Positions 45,600-62,700 of a stretch of DNA of 64,000 nucleotides are shown in pieces. The notes under the pieces are model-generated. The model searched no databases. It had not been told where the DNA came from and saw only the letters and a program-made list of their open reading frames with translations. The stretch is taken from the sequence record DRR723986_13540. One strand, given 5' to 3'. Position numbers and translations under genes: made by a program. Position 1 is the stretch's first letter, and every line of letters begins with the position of its first letter.

Positions 45600-45673
45600 G
45601 GCCTCGTAGTTCAACTGAATAGAATACCTGATTACGGCTCAGGCGGTTGCAGGTTTGAATCCTGCCGAGGTCA
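45600..45673 (+). tRNA. tRNA-Arg (anticodon ACG), CCA not encoded
   Basis: Acceptor GGCCTCG/CGAGGTC, anticodon arm CCTGA-TTACGGC-TCAGG, T arm GCAGG-TTTGAAT-CCTGC; TAAATTTG promoter at 45519-45526. Confidence 0.96.
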
Positions 45674-45675
45674 CT

Positions 45676-47271: not shown

Positions 47272-48105
47272 ATGGAAGAGTACATATCAGCAACAAAAAC
47301 CTTATGTGATGAATTGGAGCAATTACATGTAGAAGAAGCTGATGTAAGCTACAGAAGCACGAAAGCTGCAAAGCTCATTCGTAAAGTCTTAACCTCTTTT
47401 CGCAAACAGATTTGCGAAAAGGGGTTTTTAAACGAAGAGGATGAAATTCACTTCTTTAAATTCGTAAAGCCCAGGGTAAATTCTTACCTCATCTTCTTTT
47501 CAGTATTGCATGAAATTGAAACTGAAAAACACATGGTCAATGAGCAAGAGTTCAAAGATTGCGTAGACAAAAAGCAACGCATGTTCAGGTACATCATGAA
47601 AGAGAATCCAGAGTTTGTTTCTTATTACCGAGCCGGCCTTACTCACCTCGACAGAATCTACTTTCTTAGAGGTGCCAATTTAAGCGTGATGTCAAAACAC
47701 AGTACAAAACAATTAGACGACCCTGACTTCAATACCTCTCATGACACTGTAGCGGCTAACATCTTGGCCTTTGATTTATTTCAAAAGCACTTGTTTCCAA
47801 AATCTAAACTTCAGCCTCAATTCAAACCACCAGCTCCTAAACTCAAATGGACAGGTAGTAAGCTAGATTTGGTTGAATTGATTTATGCGCTTCAAGCTTC
47901 TAATGCCTTAAATTATGGTGAAGCTGAATTGAAAGATATCTGCTCATCATTTGAATCAATATTTCAAATTAAAGTAGGTGATTTGTACAGATCTTTTCAT
48001 GACATTTCGAATCGTAAAAAGAAACAGATCAAGTTTGTGAATACCCTTGAAGAGAGGTTATTGAACAAGATTGAAGAGTTGGATGGATATTATCCGGATA
48101 ATTGA
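47272..48105 (+). CDS. rteC: RteC domain regulator
   Basis: EIHFFKFVKP and LKWTGSKLDLVELIYAL motifs. Confidence 0.88.
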   Translation: MEEYISATKTLCDELEQLHVEEADVSYRSTKAAKLIRKVLTSFRKQICEKGFLNEEDEIHFFKFVKPRVNSYLIFFSVLHEIETEKHMVNEQEFKDCVDKKQRMFRYIMKENPEFVSYYRAGLTHLDRIYFLRGANLSVMSKHSTKQLDDPDFNTSHDTVAANILAFDLFQKHLFPKSKLQPQFKPPAPKLKWTGSKLDLVELIYALQASNALNYGEAELKDICSSFESIFQIKVGDLYRSFHDISNRKKKQIKFVNTLEERLLNKIEELDGYYPDN

Positions 48106-48230
48106 ATTTACGAATTTGAGTTTATCCAAATTCAAATAATGAGTTAGTACTAATTGAGAAACAAGCGTTTAGAGCAATCTGAAATGACAATTTAAATGAA
48201 TTAAAGTTATTTTTCCATATATTTGTTTCA

Positions 48231-48728
48231 GTGAAAGTGTTAAAAACATTCATATCATTTTTGTTTCTATCTACTTATTTGATAGGCTTTGGGCATGCTT
48301 TAACTCCCCATTGTCAAACAAGTTGCGATAATCATGATGTGGTTGAAAAAACGCATTCCCATGAACATCATGTACACAGTACGGATATGGGAAGTGAACA
48401 TGATCACGATCATGTAAGTCATGGAGATCATTTTGACGAAAATTGGATTGACCTTCTCGTTTGTTTGTTGAGTGATGTTGAACATCACAGTGCTGGCTGC
48501 CATGCACCTCACTTTTTTCAAACTGATAATTTAAATGATAAAAAATCGTGGTCTAAAGAAAAAGATGATAATCAAGAAGATATTGTAGCTGAATTTCAGT
48601 TACCTATTTCTTTTGAGTTGATTCTTGTAAAGACTACAATTAAATCAAATGCGCCTCCGCAGATTGATTACAGTTTTCTTCATTTTGAAGACTCGCCCCT
48701 AAGAGGCCCTCCTTTTTATTCTTGTTAA
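48231..48728 (+). CDS. His-rich exported leader protein with C-terminal RGPP (putative arrest peptide)
   Basis: N-terminal hydrophobic segment, His/Cys-rich core, SPLRGPP four residues before the stop; TATATTTG promoter at 48218-48225. Confidence 0.75.
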   Translation: MKVLKTFISFLFLSTYLIGFGHALTPHCQTSCDNHDVVEKTHSHEHHVHSTDMGSEHDHDHVSHGDHFDENWIDLLVCLLSDVEHHSAGCHAPHFFQTDNLNDKKSWSKEKDDNQEDIVAEFQLPISFELILVKTTIKSNAPPQIDYSFLHFEDSPLRGPPFYSC

Positions 48729-48814
48729 GCCAAATTGGCTTTTGTACAGCTCAAAGGATAGCTGTGCTTTGATTGTTTTTTCAAACAATCAGTTTCTTTT
48801 TAAACAAGAATAAA
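48715..48814 (+). promoter_or_regulatory. Multibranch RNA structure masking the czcA translation initiation region
   Basis: TTTATTCTTGTT (48715-48726) is the exact reverse complement of AACAAGAATAAA (48803-48814) and encloses three inner hairpins. Confidence 0.65.
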
Positions 48815-48822
48815 TTAAAATA

Positions 48823-51800
48823 ATGATAAATCGTATTATAAAATTTTCCATTGGCAATAAGCTAATCATTGGCTTACTTACGCTCGCCATAGTTGCTGGT
48901 GGTATTTGGAGCATTTCAAAAGTGCCCTTGGATGCTGTCCCTGACATCACTAATAATCAGGTTCAAGTAATTACGCAGTCACCTAATTTGGGAACTGAAG
49001 ATATAGAGCAGTTTGTCACTTATCCCGTTGAACTTTCAATGGCAAACTTGCCCGGAGTAGAAGAAATCCGATCTGTTTCAAGATTTGGTCTTTCTGTTGT
49101 TACAATTGTATTTTCTGATGACATGGGAACTTATCTTCCCAGACAATTAGTCTCAGAAAAACTAGTAGAAGTTCAACAAGATATACCAGCAGGATTTGGA
49201 GTCCCTGAAATGGGACCTATTTCAACAGGTCTAGGAGAAATCTATCAATATACCTTGGAAGTTGATGAAGACTACCGTGATGTTTATTCATCTTCAGACT
49301 TAAGGACAATGCAAGATTGGATAGTCAGAAGACAAATGGCAATGGTTCCAGGAGTTGTTGAGGTAAATGCTTTTGGTGGTGATATTAAACAATATGAAGT
49401 TGCAGTTGACCCAGATCAATTGAGATCTATGAATATTTCAATATCAGAAGTATTTGTAGCACTTGAAAACAATAATCAAAATTCAGGTGGTGCATATATA
49501 GAAAAAGATCATTACGCCAATTTCATTAGGGGTGAAGGATTAGCAAGGAGCTTAACTGATATTGAAAATATTGTCATCAAGAACATTAATGGAATTCCAA
49601 TCACGATTAAGGATGTGGGAACAGTCCGATTTGGTAAGGCAGTAAAATATGGTACGCTTACAATGGATGGCAAAGGAGAGGCCGTAGGCGGAATGATATT
49701 AATGTTAAAAGGGGCCAACTCAAATGATGTCATTGAATCAGTTAAATCTAGAGTGACAGACATTCAAAAATCACTGCCAGAAGGGGTTAAAATTGTTCCC
49801 TTTCTAGATAGAAGTTCTTTGATTGCAAAAACCACTGGAACAGTTACGCAGAATCTTTTAGAAGGAGCTTTGATCGTGATTTTTGTGTTGGTTTTCTTAT
49901 TAGGTAATTGGAGAGGTGGACTAATTGTAGCTTCTACCATTCCACTTTCATTATTATTTGCCTTTATCATGATGTACTTTTTTGGGGTATGGGCAAACCT
50001 AATGAGTTTAGGAGCAATTGACTTCGGAATCATCATAGATGGTGCCGTGATTATTGTTGAAGCCACCGTATTCATTTTGCATGGCAAAATATTGACCAAA
50101 CAAAAAATGAATCAAGAAGAGAAAGATCAGGTGGCTTATGAATCTTCAAGTAAAATGATGAATTCAGCCTTCTTTGGTCAGCTGATAATATTAATTGTAT
50201 TTATTCCAATTCTAGCCTTACAAGGTGTTGAGGGAAAAATGTTTCAACCAATGGCGCTCACCTTTATGTTCGCAATGGTTGGGGTGATGATTTTATGTTT
50301 GACGTATGTTCCAATGATGTCGGCACTCTTCTTAAAAGCGAGTAAAAAAGAAAGAAAATCATGGGGAGACAGACTTGTTTCTTGGCTGGAGAGAATTTAT
50401 GGATTAGCGCTAAGTCGCACATTAAAAGTAGGCAAATGGGTTGTGCTTGGTAGTATCCTTCTACTGAGTCTTGCGACTTACACTTTTACACGAATGGGAG
50501 GTGAATTTATTCCTCAATTGGATGAAGGAGATATCGCATTTCATGCTATTCTAAAACCAGGAAGTTCTTTAACGGAGACAATAGAAACTACTACACGTAT
50601 TGAAAAAATCGTAAAAGATCAGTTTCCTGAGGTTGATCATATTATCAGCCGGATTGGTGTGGCAGACGTGCCAACCGACCCTATGCCTATGGATATCGCG
50701 GACGTATTCGTAATTCTTAAACCTGAAGATCAATGGACAACTGTAAATAGCAAAGATCAATTGATTTCAGAAATGAAAGAGGCAGTAGGACAGGTTCCTG
50801 GTGTCAACTTTGAGTTCACACAACCAATAGAAATGAGGTTTAATGAATTGATTACTGGAGTAAGAGAAGATGTTGCTATCAAATTATTTGGAGATGATTT
50901 GGATATTCTCTCTGAAAAAGCAGAAGAAATAGGGTCTTTAATTGCTTCAATTGATGGAATTGGTGACATGAAAGTTGAAGCTACAAGCGGTTTGCCTCAG
51001 ATCACTGTAGTCTATAACCGATACGAAATAGCGAAACATGGTTTACAAATTTCAGATTTAAACAACTTGATTCAATCTGCTTTTGCTGGAGGAACAGCTG
51101 GAGTTGTATTTGAAGGAGAAAAACGATTTGATTTGGTTGTGAGACTTGATGAGGCACATAGAAAAAGCATTGATAATCTAAAGAATCTGTATATCACAAC
51201 TGCCACTGGAGCTCAAATTCCAATGTCTGAGGTAGCAGATATCAGCTATCAAACTGGTCCTATGCAAATCAGTAGAGACAATACGAATCGAAGAACCTAT
51301 GTTGGTATCAATGTTCGGGGTAGAGATGTTCAGTCGTTAGTAGAAGAAATACAAGAGAAACTAGATGCCGAGCTAGAATTACCTCCAGGGTATTATATCC
51401 GATATGGTGGTGCATTTGAAAACCTTGAACGGGCGAGTAATAGATTAAAAATAGTAGTACCGGTAGCGTTAGCGCTCATCTTGCTATTGATTTTCATGGC
51501 GCTTAAATCTTTAAAACAAACCCTGATGATTTTCATGGCAATTCCTTTGGCGGCAATAGGTGGTATTTTCTTTTTATGGTTAAGAGATATGCCGTTTAGT
51601 ATATCTGCAGGAGTTGGATTTATAGTGCTTTTTGGGGTGGCAGTTTTAAATGGACTCGTGCTAATTGGAGGATGGAATGAGCTAAAAGGAGAAGGAGTAA
51701 CTGATTTAAATGAGAGAATCAAACAAGGAGCTAAACGAAGAATAAGACCTATTCTCTTAACTGCATTGACAGATATACTAGGATTCTTACCAATGGCAAT

Positions 51801-53201: not shown

Positions 53202-54416
53202 ATGAAAACATTAACTAAACAAATGGTCCTATTGATTACAATAGCACTATTTACCTTTGCTTGTGGTGGTTCAGAGAATCAACATAGCGAAGGTGATGGA
53301 CATGACCACGGTCATGATCATGATGATGAGCATGGTGGAGAACACAGTGAAGAAATTCACTTCTCAATGCAACAATTTAGCTCACTAAATATGATGGTGG
53401 ACACATTAGCTTTGAGAAACATGAATTCATTCGTAACGGCAAACGGTGAATTAGAAGTACCTCCCCAAAGTGAAGCAGAAGTTACGGCCGTTATAGGTGC
53501 AAATGTTAAATCTATTAAAGTAATTGAAGGTGAAAAAGTAAGAAAAGGCCAAGTCTTAGCTTACTTATCTCATCCTGATTTAATTCAGTTACAAACAGAT
53601 TACATAACTAATTGGAGCGAACTTGAATATTTACAAACAGAGTATGAAAGACAAGAAAAACTTTATGCTGAAAAAGTTGGTTCTGGTAAAGAATTTCAGA
53701 AAATTCAATCTGAATTAAAAGTCAAAAAAGGCACAGTTGCGGGATTAAAAGCGCAATTGAACATCATAGGAATTAGCACTCAGAGCTTAGAAAAGAACGA
53801 GATTACTCAATCTGTTGCTGTTCGCAGCCCAATAGATGGCTTTGTAAGATTGGTTGAAATAAAACTAGGACAATATGTTAACCCTGAAGCGTCTATGTTT
53901 GAAATTGTAAACTCTGATCATGTCCATGCAGATTTAATGGTGTTTGAAAAGGATGCTTACAAAATAAAGGTTGGGCAGAAAGTTACTTTCAATGTTCAGT
54001 CAGCCCCAGGTCAAGAATTGTCAGCAGTAATTTATTCAGTTGGGCAAAATTTTGAACAAGATCCTAAAGCAATTCATGTTCATGCTGAAATTGAAAACAA
54101 AGATCATGAACTCATTCCCGGCATGTATGTACAAGGAAAAATCTATACTGAGAATGTATTGAGTTATGCAATTCCTGAAGAAGGTTTGGTTCGAGAAGGT
54201 GACAAGTATTTCATTTTCTCAGCAAAGAAAGAACAGGATCATGATGAAGAGCAATGGGCTTTTGAACCGATAGAAGTTGTGCCTGGAATATCTGAGGATG
54301 GTTGGGTTGAAATAAAACTCCTGACCCCATTAGAGCCAGCAACAAAAATAGCTTGGAACAATGCGTATAATTTAATTGCCGAAATGAAAAAAGGCGAAAC
54401 AGAACATAGTCACTAA
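53202..54416 (+). CDS. czcB: RND periplasmic adaptor (CzcB-like) lipoprotein with His-rich N-terminus
   Basis: FACG lipobox, HDHGHDH tract, VRSPIDG, LIPGMYV. Confidence 0.92.
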   Translation: MKTLTKQMVLLITIALFTFACGGSENQHSEGDGHDHGHDHDDEHGGEHSEEIHFSMQQFSSLNMMVDTLALRNMNSFVTANGELEVPPQSEAEVTAVIGANVKSIKVIEGEKVRKGQVLAYLSHPDLIQLQTDYITNWSELEYLQTEYERQEKLYAEKVGSGKEFQKIQSELKVKKGTVAGLKAQLNIIGISTQSLEKNEITQSVAVRSPIDGFVRLVEIKLGQYVNPEASMFEIVNSDHVHADLMVFEKDAYKIKVGQKVTFNVQSAPGQELSAVIYSVGQNFEQDPKAIHVHAEIENKDHELIPGMYVQGKIYTENVLSYAIPEEGLVREGDKYFIFSAKKEQDHDEEQWAFEPIEVVPGISEDGWVEIKLLTPLEPATKIAWNNAYNLIAEMKKGETEHSH

Positions 54417-54430
54417 TTAAATATCTAAAT

Positions 54431-54607
54431 ATGAAAACGAAGTACCTAAGAATTGCTTTAATAGCAACATTGTTAATTGGATCAATCTCATTCACATCAT
54501 GCGGTGGTAATGAAGAAGAAGCCAATACTGAAGAAAATCATGATGGACATGATCACGGAGATCATGAACATGGTGATGGAGAGGACCATGAAGGACACGA
54601 ACATTAA
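54431..54607 (+). CDS. 58-aa His/acidic lipoprotein (not in the ORF track)
   Basis: MKTKYLRIALIATLLIGSISFTS-CGGNEEEANTEENHDGHDHGDHEHGDGEDHEGHEH; A-rich initiation region. Confidence 0.85.
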   Translation: MKTKYLRIALIATLLIGSISFTSCGGNEEEANTEENHDGHDHGDHEHGDGEDHEGHEH

Positions 54608-54613
54608 TTAATT

Positions 54614-54642
54614 GTGCCGCTTGGTGTAAAATCAGGCGGCAC
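54614..54642 (+). terminator. GC-rich intercistronic hairpin (partial terminator or mRNA stabiliser)
   Basis: GTGCCGC...GCGGCAC stem followed by TTATTT. Confidence 0.55.
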
Positions 54643-54655
54643 TTATTTAGCTCTT

Positions 54656-54883
54656 ATGAAAGATAAAATTTATACAATTCTGAAAGCAGAATTAGATTTT
54701 AATAGTGAAATCAAAACTGAATATTGTCTATATGACGATTTAGGTATGGATTCAATTAGTGTAATAGATGTAATGGTGAAAGTTGAAAACGAGTTTGACA
54801 TCTCTTTTACAGATGATGAAGTAAAAGAAATTAAAATGGTAAATCATTTGGTTGAAGCCGTTTCTAAAAAATTAAAGAATTAG
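54656..54883 (+). CDS. Acyl carrier protein
   Basis: DDLGMDSI phosphopantetheine serine motif, ENEFDI; start taken at ATG 54656. Confidence 0.88.
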   Translation: MKDKIYTILKAELDFNSEIKTEYCLYDDLGMDSISVIDVMVKVENEFDISFTDDEVKEIKMVNHLVEAVSKKLKN

Positions 54884-54892
54884 TTTGTTGAT

Positions 54893-55495
54893 ATGACTGT
54901 TTTTCAAATATTCTTACCCGCTTTTATGCTGGTATACTTTTTTCAAGTTTTCGTAATCAGAAGTTACGTGCAATGGAAAAAAACAGGACAAAACCCATTT
55001 GTGTTTAGTCGATCTGAAAACGCCCATGATTACATAGGTTTTGTATTTAAAATCATGACGGTTTTGAGTTTAACGGTTATCGTGCTCTTTAGTTTTTTTC
55101 AAGGATTCTATACCAAGTACCTTGGAGAATTAACTTACTTAAACTTAATAGAGTTACAATGGATAGGTTCAGGGCTTTTGGTCTTTTCATTGATCTGGAC
55201 AATTATTGCTCAATATCAAATGTCTAATTCATGGAGGATTGGAATAGATTATGAAGAAAAAACTACTCTTGTAGATGAAGGTATCTTCAAATTATCAAGA
55301 AATCCAGTTTTTCTTGGTGTATTACTGATCTACTTAGGGATATTTTTAATAGCCCCAAATGTCTTGTCTTTCACCTTGTTTGCTTTATGTTATTTCATTC
55401 TTCAAATCCAATCAAGATTAGAAGAAGAATACCTTGAGGACATTCATGGCAAAACATACCTTGATTATAAGAAGAAAGTAAGGAGATGGATTTAA
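54893..55495 (+). CDS. Isoprenylcysteine carboxyl methyltransferase/PEMT family membrane protein
   Basis: MSNSWRIGID, SRNP.FLG, EEEYL, Y..YKKKVRRWI motifs. Confidence 0.88.
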   Translation: MTVFQIFLPAFMLVYFFQVFVIRSYVQWKKTGQNPFVFSRSENAHDYIGFVFKIMTVLSLTVIVLFSFFQGFYTKYLGELTYLNLIELQWIGSGLLVFSLIWTIIAQYQMSNSWRIGIDYEEKTTLVDEGIFKLSRNPVFLGVLLIYLGIFLIAPNVLSFTLFALCYFILQIQSRLEEEYLEDIHGKTYLDYKKKVRRWI

Positions 55496-61537: not shown

Positions 61538-62194
61538 ATGAAATATAGTAGAGCAGAAGAAAATTATTTAAAGGCCATTTACAAATTATCCAGGGTACAG
61601 AAAAATGAAGTTTCTACTAAAGCAATTGGTGAACTACTTAACATTAAACCACCAACTGTATCAGACATGCTTAAGAAATTAGCTACTAAAAAGTTAGCGA
61701 ATTACGAAAAATACAAAGGCGTGAGTTTGACTAAGAAAGGAGAACTTCACGCTTTAAAAGTGATAAGAAAACACAGGTTATGGGAAACCTTTTTAGTTGA
61801 AAAACTGGATTTCACATGGGATAAAGTGCATGATATCGCTGAACAATTGGAGCATATTCATTCAATTGATTTAGTTAATCGGTTAGATAAATTCCTAAAC
61901 TATCCAAAATTTGATCCGCATGGTGATCCAATACCTAATGAAGAAGGCATTATAGAACTAAGGCATGAAAAAACCTTAGATACAATAGCCGTAGGAATGA
62001 CCGCAATTATGGTGGGCGTTAAAGATCACTCACCGCAATTTTTAAAATACTTAGACAGTATTACTCTGAATTTAGGATTAGAAATTGAAATAACGGATAA
62101 AATTGAGTTTGATAACTCTATTCGCGTAAAACTAAAAGACTCAAACGAGCACCAACTTTCTCAACTAGTTGCCCAAAATATTATTGTAAAGTAA
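61538..62194 (+). CDS. DtxR/MntR family metal-dependent repressor with FeoA/SH3-like domain
   Basis: EENYLKAIY, RKHRLWETFL, AEQLEH, DPHGDPIP motifs. Confidence 0.94.
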   Translation: MKYSRAEENYLKAIYKLSRVQKNEVSTKAIGELLNIKPPTVSDMLKKLATKKLANYEKYKGVSLTKKGELHALKVIRKHRLWETFLVEKLDFTWDKVHDIAEQLEHIHSIDLVNRLDKFLNYPKFDPHGDPIPNEEGIIELRHEKTLDTIAVGMTAIMVGVKDHSPQFLKYLDSITLNLGLEIEITDKIEFDNSIRVKLKDSNEHQLSQLVAQNIIVK

Positions 62195-62394: not shown

Positions 62395-62700
62395 ATGGCA
62401 ACAAACATTATTACCCCAGATGATTTAGAACAGTTCAAATGGGAACTACTTGCGGACATTAAAGAGTACCTGGATAAAAAAGTAGGAACAACGCCCGCAC
62501 AAAAAGAAGAAGATTGGATCAAATCTCATCAGGTCCAAAGGTTACTTGGAATTTCTCCAGGCACATTACAAAACCTTAGAGTGAATGGCACTATCCCCTA
62601 TTCAAAAGTTGGAGGAGTACTCTTCTATAAGAAGGCCGATATCCAGCACATCTTGGAACAAAATATGAGAAACAGTGATCAATCAATTAACAACCATTAA
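62395..62700 (+). CDS. HTH_17 excisionase-like protein
   Basis: IITPDDL, WIKS, ISPGTLQNLRVNGTIPYSKVGG motifs. Confidence 0.9.
   Translation: MATNIITPDDLEQFKWELLADIKEYLDKKVGTTPAQKEEDWIKSHQVQRLLGISPGTLQNLRVNGTIPYSKVGGVLFYKKADIQHILEQNMRNSDQSINNH

Follow-up and report, generated by a model that had tools for sequence, protein, structure and literature searches.

The nascent-chain metal sensors for which experimental tests were found in the literature, CutF and CruR, are both copper responsive. CutF, from cutFOG of Rhodobacter capsulatus, combines a signal peptide, a metal motif, and a proline-rich C-terminal stall with a stem-loop over the next ribosome-binding site, and copper prolongs the stall (PMC9973294). 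In CruR of Bordetella pertussis, a DUF2946 protein, arrest occurs at an RAPP motif and is relieved by copper, leading to Rho-dependent termination and turning an uptake receptor off (PMC9426467). Here, we describe a leader open reading frame (ORF) that ends shortly after a related motif, RGPP, and lies directly upstream of the heavy-metal efflux gene czcA in a 64,000-nucleotide (nt) stretch of sequence record DRR723986_13540. This whole stretch is referred to as the window, and positions are counted from its first letter. We propose, with a probability of about 0.7, that the leader is a cis-acting, CutF-like arrest peptide of the RAPP/RGPP class and forms, together with an RNA helix, a switch that heads a czcA(-czcC)-czcB divalent-metal efflux operon. 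The motif is near-invariant among homologs, the helix pairs the end of the leader with the czcA start region and is conserved in position with covariation, and the leader is linked to efflux genes.

In RAPP-type arrest, the first proline codon occupies the P site and the second the A site; for CruR, arrest at the two proline codons was seen by in vitro toeprinting (PMC12992588), and its regulation is reported to be independent of the signal sequence, with a spacer of 162 nt (PMC9973294). Fujiwara et al. reported RAPP and RGPP as the most robust arrest cores and found them enriched at the C termini of small secretory proteins encoded upstream of diverse genes, metal-related ones included (PMC12992588). 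The leader resembles ApdA, ApdP, the RQH family, and upstream ORFs of Streptomyces lividans in having RGPP or RAPP near the C terminus of a protein of <300 amino acids (aa), an N-terminal localization signal, and a position upstream of the regulated gene (PMC12992588, PMC10987492); in the window, R-[AG]-P-P stands near the C terminus of a protein within this size limit, on the same strand as the pump gene and directly upstream of it, and the N-terminal segment is taken from a structural model. Some of the S. lividans upstream ORFs also have conserved Cys/His residues and metal-related downstream genes (PMC12992588, PMC10987492). The arrest-peptide targets named in the main texts of these two papers are Sec/YidC, TonB receptors, YcnI, PCuAC, PepSY, and thioredoxin-like genes, and the main text of PMC12992588 makes no mention of efflux, resistance-nodulation-division (RND) pumps, CusA, or zinc and states that copper-related upstream ORFs were not found in Bacteroidota.

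The layout of the locus can be compared most directly with that of CutF. In both cases, a small Sec-targeted protein is encoded just 5′ of a metal detoxification gene and carries a metal motif in its exported part (Sec targeting and metal motif being predicted for the leader), with a proline-rich stall motif that only a few codons separate from the stop and an intergenic RNA structure over the next start. An in silico survey of CutF-like proteins listed 5,334 proteins of <150 aa, 19% of them from Bacteroidota, with neighbors that include CusA/CzcA-, CusB/CzcB-, and CusC/CzcC-type genes (PMC9973294). Among the traits used in that survey, the window protein has PP within its last 15 residues, a Cys/His motif, a same-strand metal gene <1,000 nt away, and a predicted N-terminal signal, and our fold, stem, and masking computations place an RNA structure over the downstream start within reach of a stalled ribosome; at 165 aa, it lies outside the survey's length filter of <150 aa. 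CutF belongs to DUF2946 and has a CxxxC copper site ~45 residues from the stall, whereas the leader does not match DUF2946 and has a His-rich module and two Cys residues, 74 to 88 residues from RGPP. In addition, the target of CutF is a multicopper oxidase gene whose Shine-Dalgarno sequence is covered by a local stem-loop, whereas the leader precedes an RND pump and would act through a long-range helix involving its own last codons and a start that lacks a Shine-Dalgarno sequence. The CutF logic, in which metal prolongs the stall, the downstream gene is switched on, and action is in cis only, is carried over to the leader as a proposal.

With CruR, the leader shares an upstream ORF with a metal-binding motif (a candidate one here), a C-terminal RAPP-type motif, and metal transport genes downstream, but its target is an efflux pump and a conserved RNA element masks the start region. 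SecM, VemP, and MifM are exported or inserted leaders whose arrest close to the C terminus makes the RNA structure at the next start open up and is released by pulling, as is proposed for the leader described here; unlike it, these proteins monitor export capacity, control sec or yidC genes, and have no metal-binding module. The design principle, including the logic by which metal prolongs arrest, is already published for copper with CutF (PMC9973294), and the leader is not a new principle. What is new here is an unannotated His-rich family, distinct from DUF2946 by model, in a phylum that initiates without Shine-Dalgarno sequences and before a divalent-cation-type RND pump on a mobile island. 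Apart from the in silico survey of PMC9973294, no publication describing an RGPP/RAPP leader before czcA in Bacteroidota was retrieved by our literature searches, which covered main texts, and the leader family may already be among the published clusters in the supplements of that paper or of PMC12992588.

The RGPP motif and the protein family that carries it

The original prediction described a promoter 5 nt before a 165-aa ORF with an export-type N terminus, a His/Cys-rich core, and RGPP four codons before the stop, and all of these features are confirmed in the sequence. The N terminus is basic and then hydrophobic, the His/Cys-rich core follows, and the C terminus reads ...SPLRGPPFYSC before TAA. 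Relatives were collected by a word-based search (11), by genome and metagenome scans (loci L001 to L052, with a 15-row family alignment used for the metagenomes), and by a profile search of 1.84 billion representatives, which gave 299 clusters at an E value of ≤1e-3 and 202 at ≤1e-10. The 15-row alignment shows no variation at R158, P160, and P161, and position 159 is occupied by G or A. R[AG]PP followed by two to four residues and the stop codon was found in 28 of 29 homologous ORFs (the window and L001 to L028), as RGPP in 25 and as RAPP in 3. When the 150 best representatives with pairwise identities of ≤50% were considered, the motif fell within the last 14 residues of 146 (140 RGPP and 6 RAPP), one to nine and mostly three or four residues before the stop, and R[AG]PP occurred nowhere else in these 150 proteins. 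The four exceptions comprise two KGPP forms, one protein without the motif, and one frameshifted form. All 12 complete metagenome ORFs contain R[AG]PP as well. Within the window, six-frame ORFs of ≥40 aa contain no second R[AG]P[PG], so that the copy in the leader is the sole one.

The level at which these positions are selected can be read from codon usage. Across 24 unique loci, the motif is written with six Arg codons, six Gly/Ala codons, and three codons for each Pro; since many synonymous codons thus encode RGPP, its selection acts at the protein level. By contrast, no variation occurs in the TAT and TCT codons 3′ of the motif across the 12 loci of the window's type, which points to selection at the RNA level for the codons after RGPP. 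One locus, L005 (3001-3543; protein P0002), has RGPS in place of RGPP and a 30-residue tail that runs through the hairpin region, with an apparent 1-nt frameshift in the Pro codons; this form reflects either a faulty assembly or the loss of the switch in nature.

The body of the leader is modeled with less confidence than its N terminus. An AlphaFold2 model built with 150 sequences has a mean predicted local distance difference test score (pLDDT) of 68 and a predicted template modeling score (pTM) of 0.31. Apart from the helix at residues 2 to 24, in which S9, Y16, G19, and H22 are conserved, it contains a beta hairpin at residues 62 to 69 over HGDHFD and a helix at residues 72 to 84 over the invariant Cys78; the remainder is coil, and the pLDDT drops to <50 at residues 92 to 117. 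The distance from the H.DH pattern to the Arg of the motif has a median of 88 residues (interquartile range [IQR], 86 to 89, in the 88 of 149 sequences with both patterns), and that from Cys to the Arg a median of 74 (IQR, 73 to 76), for a median family length of 159 aa. A spacer of fixed length and free sequence is what a nascent chain would need if it were to span the exit tunnel and the translocon.

These features also bear on two other functions that the leader might have. It could be an export (Sec/YidC) monitor like SecM or ApdP, its His-rich part being incidental or of use to the mature protein; a signal-like N-terminal helix in the model would suit this, and RAPP-like Sec monitors exist in Flavobacteriales and Bacteroidales, as the main text of PMC10987492 describes. 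However, outside the motif it is His, Cys, and Asp residues that are invariant, and in all loci examined the downstream gene within reach belongs to a metal efflux operon and is never sec or yidC, which makes this alternative very unlikely in our view. Alternatively, the leader could be a stable protein of the periplasm or membrane that serves in trans as a metal chaperone or regulator, similar to CzcI, which precedes czcCBA in Cupriavidus (PMC9973294), and the helix a structural or stability element of the mRNA. Conservation of the His/Cys module and of the N-terminal segment would be expected of such a protein, but CzcI has no C-terminal proline motif (PMC9973294), whereas this motif is the most conserved feature of the leader; moreover, the low-confidence model shows little fold, and the last leader codons are constrained as RNA. 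We consider a trans-acting role highly improbable as well.

No Pfam or NCBIfam match was found for the leader protein. The DUF2946 model (PF11162) did not match the window protein at an E value of ≤0.01 or ≤1, matched 2 of 150 family members at ≤1 (best E value, 0.04), and found nothing at ≤1 in any of five carrier genomes (0/5). With DUF6769 (PF20558), a family of Bacteroidota, no match was obtained for the window protein or for 148 of 150 family members even at an E value of ≤1, and the best E value of the other two was 0.11. An hhalign comparison of the leader family with DUF6769 nonetheless gave a probability of 94%, confined to the N-terminal 38 columns. Two DUF6769 members, L033 (1462-1914) and L034 (1489-1908), end in GLRAPP plus two residues and the stop, before His-rich lipoprotein genes that we take to be the membrane fusion genes of efflux operons, and another member above the cutoff occurs in Bacteroides thetaiotaomicron. 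Like the leader, the L033 and L034 proteins have a hydrophobic N terminus that ends in PHHHH and a Cys/His-rich core, and L034 also has a helix at the corresponding place; unlike the leader family, DUF6769 is similar at the N terminus only and is itself without functional annotation. DUF6769 is a sister family with the layout of the leader and is probably a set of arrest leaders too.

The leader family has a narrow distribution. It was found in 17 of 61 genomes related to the nearest database genome, in 13 of 37 from the same taxonomic family, and in only 4 of 301 genomes of an even sample of the phylum. The named carriers are Crocinitomicaceae, Fluviicola, Putridiphycobacter, and Crocinitomix, mainly Crocinitomicaceae together with other Flavobacteriales.

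A long-range helix over the czcA start region

The 12-nt complementarity that had been pointed out between the end of the leader and the region upstream of the czcA ATG is an exact reverse complement, and the minimum free energy (MFE) fold agrees that this stem closes three hairpins, of which the third is slightly longer than first drawn (Table 1). The fold of 48700-48840 has a free energy of -38.3 kcal/mol (z = -4.68), a stability that no shuffled sequence attained (0/200). The helix score of the window is 12, compared with a mean of 6.9 in 200 shuffles of the 3′ region, of which one reached 12. In each locus, stems were searched without gaps between the 20 nt from the second Pro codon and the 28 nt at -25 to +3 of the downstream ATG; because stems were picked by best fit, shuffles and shifted windows served as controls for that choice. 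The best stem scored 8 to 14 in 20 of 22 unique czcA-linked loci, with shuffle means of ~5.5 to 6.9 and with mostly 4 to 7 in control windows shifted to either side; the stem score was reached by no more than 4 of 200 shuffles in 19 loci and by 15 of 200 in L011. Position is conserved too, with the 5′ strand beginning at -1 to +4 nt after the PP codons and the 3′ strand ending 3 to 10 nt 5′ of the ATG, or extending into the ATG in the case of L021.

The sequence of the helix varies more than its position. Counting near-identical loci, a helix was found at the matching place in 31 of 40 loci, in about ten complementary spellings, and the leader loci contain 12 distinct 12-mers as the 5′ strand. 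Complementary strand pairs kept across subgroups include TTTATTCTTGTT/AACAAGAATAAA, ACTTATTTATAG/TTATAAATAAGT, and TATTTTACTTGCTAG/TTAGCAAGTAAAATG, and further subgroup pairs are GTTTCCTGT/ACAGGAAAT, ATTTTCTTG/CAAGAAAAT, and TTCTTGTAT/ATACAAGAA. Watson-Crick pairs are altered on both sides at five helix positions (+4, +5, +8, +11, and +12), and among eight divergent representatives the mean pairing score is 9.8 for strands of the same locus and 6.2 for strands of different loci. Covariation was measured with custom scripts, since MAFFT lost the register of the 3′ strands of divergent loci. Beyond the close relatives, a stem is kept in four of eight distant loci, as TCTTTGGGAT/ATCCCAAAGA in L029 and with 8, 11, and 15 bp in L031, L032, and L034, respectively, and stems of 9 to 11 bp with further spelling variants were found in 7 of 10 metagenome loci. 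Thus, both elements on whose conservation among homologs the original prediction depended, the motif and the stem, are conserved, and the covariation it called for is present between subgroups. At the level of sequence, the comparative test supports the interpretation of the locus as an arrest switch.

Table 1. Positions of the leader, its parts, the RNA elements, and selected genes in the window
Feature	Position	Strand	Remarks
RteC-family gene	47272-48105		Directly upstream of the leader
Candidate -7 promoter box, TATATTTG	48218-48225	+	5 nt 5′ of the GTG at 48231
Leader (proposed sensor/arrest) ORF	48231-48728	+	GTG start, 165 aa
Hydrophobic N-terminal helix, signal peptide or signal anchor, residues 2-24	48234-48302	+	AlphaFold2, pLDDT ~93
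Candidate metal-binding core, residues 27-90	48309-48500	+	Invariant columns: PH, HxHxH, HxH, HGDHFD, C78, C90
Poorly conserved spacer, residues 91-157	48501-48701	+	Mostly low model confidence; length constrained
RGPP codons R158-G159-P160-P161, predicted arrest site	48702-48713	+	P site 48708-48710, A site 48711-48713
Helix 5′ strand, TTTATTCTTGTT	48715-48726	+	Last four sense codons and first stop codon base
Hairpin 1	48727-48741	+	MFE fold
Hairpin 2	48744-48767	+	MFE fold; terminator-like by simple scan
Hairpin 3	48769-48792	+	MFE fold; T-rich run after it
Helix 3′ strand, anti-initiation (proposed)	48803-48814	+	-20 to -9 of the czcA ATG at 48823; exact complement of the 5′ strand
CzcA-type heavy-metal RND permease fused to TolC/CzcC-like outer membrane factor, 1,453 aa	48823-53184	+	Presumed regulated gene
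CzcB-type membrane fusion protein, His-rich N terminus	53202-54416	+	HlyD_D23, E = 4.3e-34
DtxR-type metalloregulator gene	61538-62194		On the island, 8 kb away
HTH_17 gene	62395-62700		On the island

Several observations weigh against the proposed switch. No significant helix was found in 9 of the 40 loci (L024 and L025 among the czcA-linked loci; L026, L028, L030, and L033 among the distant loci; and L049, L050, and L052 among the metagenome loci). RNAalifold recovered 10 bp of the helix in the 12 closest loci with no compensatory change; the helix is invariant within the subgroup of the window, so that the covariation evidence comes only from comparisons between subgroups. The helix is A/U-rich, with a duplex energy of ~-12 kcal/mol in the window. 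When the footprint of the stalled ribosome was masked, the unpaired probability of positions -20 to -1 rose from 0.31 to 0.61 in the window and from a mean of 0.36 to 0.54 over 22 loci, a predicted gain in accessibility of the czcA start that is real but moderate. Three public RNA runs contain only short contig fragments at the locus (shares of 0.14 to 0.22, covering 48294-48531 and 48877-49047), which are uninformative on transcript ends or continuity. The locus is also not free of candidate regulators: the earlier claim that none lies beside the efflux operon held for the ArsR, MerR, CsoR, and two-component types, none of which was found when the larger ORFs from 43.7 to 63.7 kb were scanned with Pfam, but the RteC gene adjoins the leader and the DtxR-type and HTH_17 genes lie on the island. 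The two remaining points, a layout that plain translational coupling could use and a possible attenuation component, belong to the two alternatives considered next.

The main rival is plain translational coupling without regulated arrest, in which each finishing ribosome would melt the helix and allow one czcA initiation, and RGPP would serve the mature exported protein. Only four codons separate PP from the stop codon (48726-48728), whose first base is also the last one of the 5′ strand; because the stop codon is inside the helix, any translating or terminating ribosome would open the helix briefly, and so weak a helix would suit this scheme. Leader and pump would then be made in proportion, and stalling would be unnecessary. 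Coupling leaves unexplained, however, why R[AG]PP is near-invariant at one to nine residues before the stop while the flanking residues are free and why only Gly and Ala, which give the two strongest arrest variants (PMC12992588), occupy its second position; in addition, the C-terminal part of the leader is predicted to be coil. On balance, we judge coupling unlikely.

Arrest might also act on transcription, by blocking Rho loading or altering a terminator in the 94-nt spacer, as CruR operates via Rho-dependent termination (PMC9426467). Hairpin 2 resembles a terminator and a T run follows hairpin 3, which is why an attenuation component is possible in the window. Two metagenome loci may work in this manner: in L049 and L050, the leader ends in RGPPLA, the spacer to czcA measures 207 to 208 nt, there is no helix at the usual place, and another readout such as transcription termination as in CruR may be used. 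On the other hand, terminator-like features are not conserved, as spacers of the L006 and L009 types have no T run after the last hairpin, and the element that is conserved and covaries is the helix over the start region. Furthermore, the stalled ribosome would not extend as far as the hairpins, which would therefore form with or without a stall. Action on transcription appears improbable to us. Attenuation at an intrinsic terminator as the main mechanism was rejected as a conserved feature, the T run and the terminator-like features not being kept in other subgroups. A search of 48000-49000 against Rfam at an E value of ≤1 gave two subthreshold, chance-level matches on the opposite strand and no riboswitch or leader family.

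A proposed switch and the island on which it lies

In the arrest switch that we favor, the leader would have its own promoter and be translated on an mRNA that is probably leaderless, and its N-terminal signal or anchor would take the His/Cys-rich part to the Sec translocon. At RGPP, a slow peptide bond between Pro160 in the P site and Pro161 in the A site would park the ribosome; by analogy with characterized RAPP-type leaders, arrest is expected at this motif. A ribosome covers ~15 nt beyond the first P-site base. The parked one would shield the mRNA to ~48723, that is, 9 to 10 of the 12 bases of the 5′ strand. The helix with the upstream flank of czcA would be prevented, leaving the A-rich czcA start, which has no Shine-Dalgarno sequence, free for synthesis of the pump. 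Once export pulled the chain out, four more codons would be read, termination would follow, and the ribosome would leave, so that the helix could re-form and hide the start again. Following the CutF model, binding of metal to the exported His/Cys module would weaken or delay the pulling, giving a longer arrest and an induced pump. Metal dependence and its direction are suggested by the conservation of His and Cys, the efflux context, and the CutF precedent, and export of the leader is likewise presumed. Bacteroidia initiate without Shine-Dalgarno pairing, and mRNA structure tunes their initiation (PMC6847099, PMC7797042), which makes hiding an A-rich start region a sensible point of control.

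The transcription unit appears to begin at the leader itself. The candidate box TATATTTG fits TAnnTTTG, which we take to be the -7 promoter box of Bacteroidota, and this pattern was found in 14 of 18 unique upstream regions of leader loci, 4 to 6 nt 5′ of the GTG or ATG, a count that omits six loci without the anchor pattern. The position of the box suggests a leaderless or nearly leaderless leader mRNA, often beginning with GUG. Genes upstream of the leader differ from locus to locus (HEPN/NTase, cytochrome c peroxidase, HTH_17, ArsR plus MerT/HMA, and Fur); with the box kept near the start while flanks and upstream genes change, the leader seems to be the first gene of a transcription unit of its own, whose mRNA is probably leaderless. 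Several of the loci L009, L010, L011, and L005 have an ArsR-family gene and a MerT-HMA fusion gene just upstream of the leader ORF, and L011 has a Fur-family gene there as well. Across loci, the czc unit is repeatedly joined with these other metal modules.

Downstream, the pump gene matches TIGR00914 (CusA/CzcA; E = 0; 1,197 bits against a cutoff of 701) over residues 1 to 1040, and a TolC-family match covers residues 1270 to 1412 of the fusion. The czcA ATG lies 94 nt past the leader stop. The gene 3′ of the leader, almost always the one that opens a metal RND efflux operon, is CzcA-like in 27 of 28 loci and in 10 of 10 metagenome loci where it was within reach; in distant members, a CzcC-like outer membrane gene takes the place of czcA and RGPP is kept. 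Zn, Co, Cd, or Ni is favored as the metal on the basis of a DFG...DGA...VE signature, which we take to be that of CzcA-type pumps, and of a neighboring CPC-type P1B ATPase. The czcA-outer membrane factor fusion, of ~1,454 to 1,463 aa and followed by czcB, also occurs in three other genomes (L037, L038, and L039); an inner membrane pump fused to an outer membrane channel is topologically odd. Directly after czcB, a 58-aa ORF (54431-54607) with a lipoprotein-like N terminus (…SFTSCGG) and an acidic His-rich tail, without a Pfam or NCBIfam match, may encode a metal-binding accessory of the periplasm. An acyl carrier protein-like ORF and a PEMT/ICMT-type methyltransferase-like membrane protein, an unusual pairing for a metal resistance island, are encoded farther on (54614-55495), before the P-type ATPase. 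On the other side, a tRNA-Arg gene (45600-45674) precedes a tyrosine integrase gene whose product has an Arm-DNA-binding domain (region to 47202), and the metal resistance operon sits on an integrative element (like a conjugative transposon [CTn] or an integrative and conjugative element [ICE]), of which the HTH_17 gene may encode the excisionase or a regulator.

Heavy-metal RND pumps are usually considered to be controlled by two-component systems or MerR/ArsR-type regulators, and little work has addressed their regulation in Bacteroidota. If the proposal is true, a ready-made, regulator-free induction mechanism would move with the resistance island; as the switch would need no trans-acting partner, it would travel with its pump on integrative elements. 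A His-rich member before a CzcA-type pump would widen nascent-chain metal sensing beyond copper. A bolder reading, which we offer tentatively and hold to be possible rather than probable, is that this would be the first nascent-chain switch that senses Zn, Co, Cd, or Ni, replacing two-component, MerR, or ArsR control in Flavobacteriales, that the spacer of 74 to 88 residues would act as a ruler placing the His/Cys module just past the periplasmic exit of SecYEG, and that the family would form, with DUF6769, a Bacteroidota-wide superfamily of leaderless arrest switches independent of Shine-Dalgarno sequences. The comparative data pinpoint residues and base pairs for mutagenesis, namely the invariant motif, the covarying helix, and the length-constrained spacer. 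The principle known from CutF would then reach a phylum whose ribosomes ignore Shine-Dalgarno sequences and in which the unstructured, A-rich start region itself must be what is hidden.

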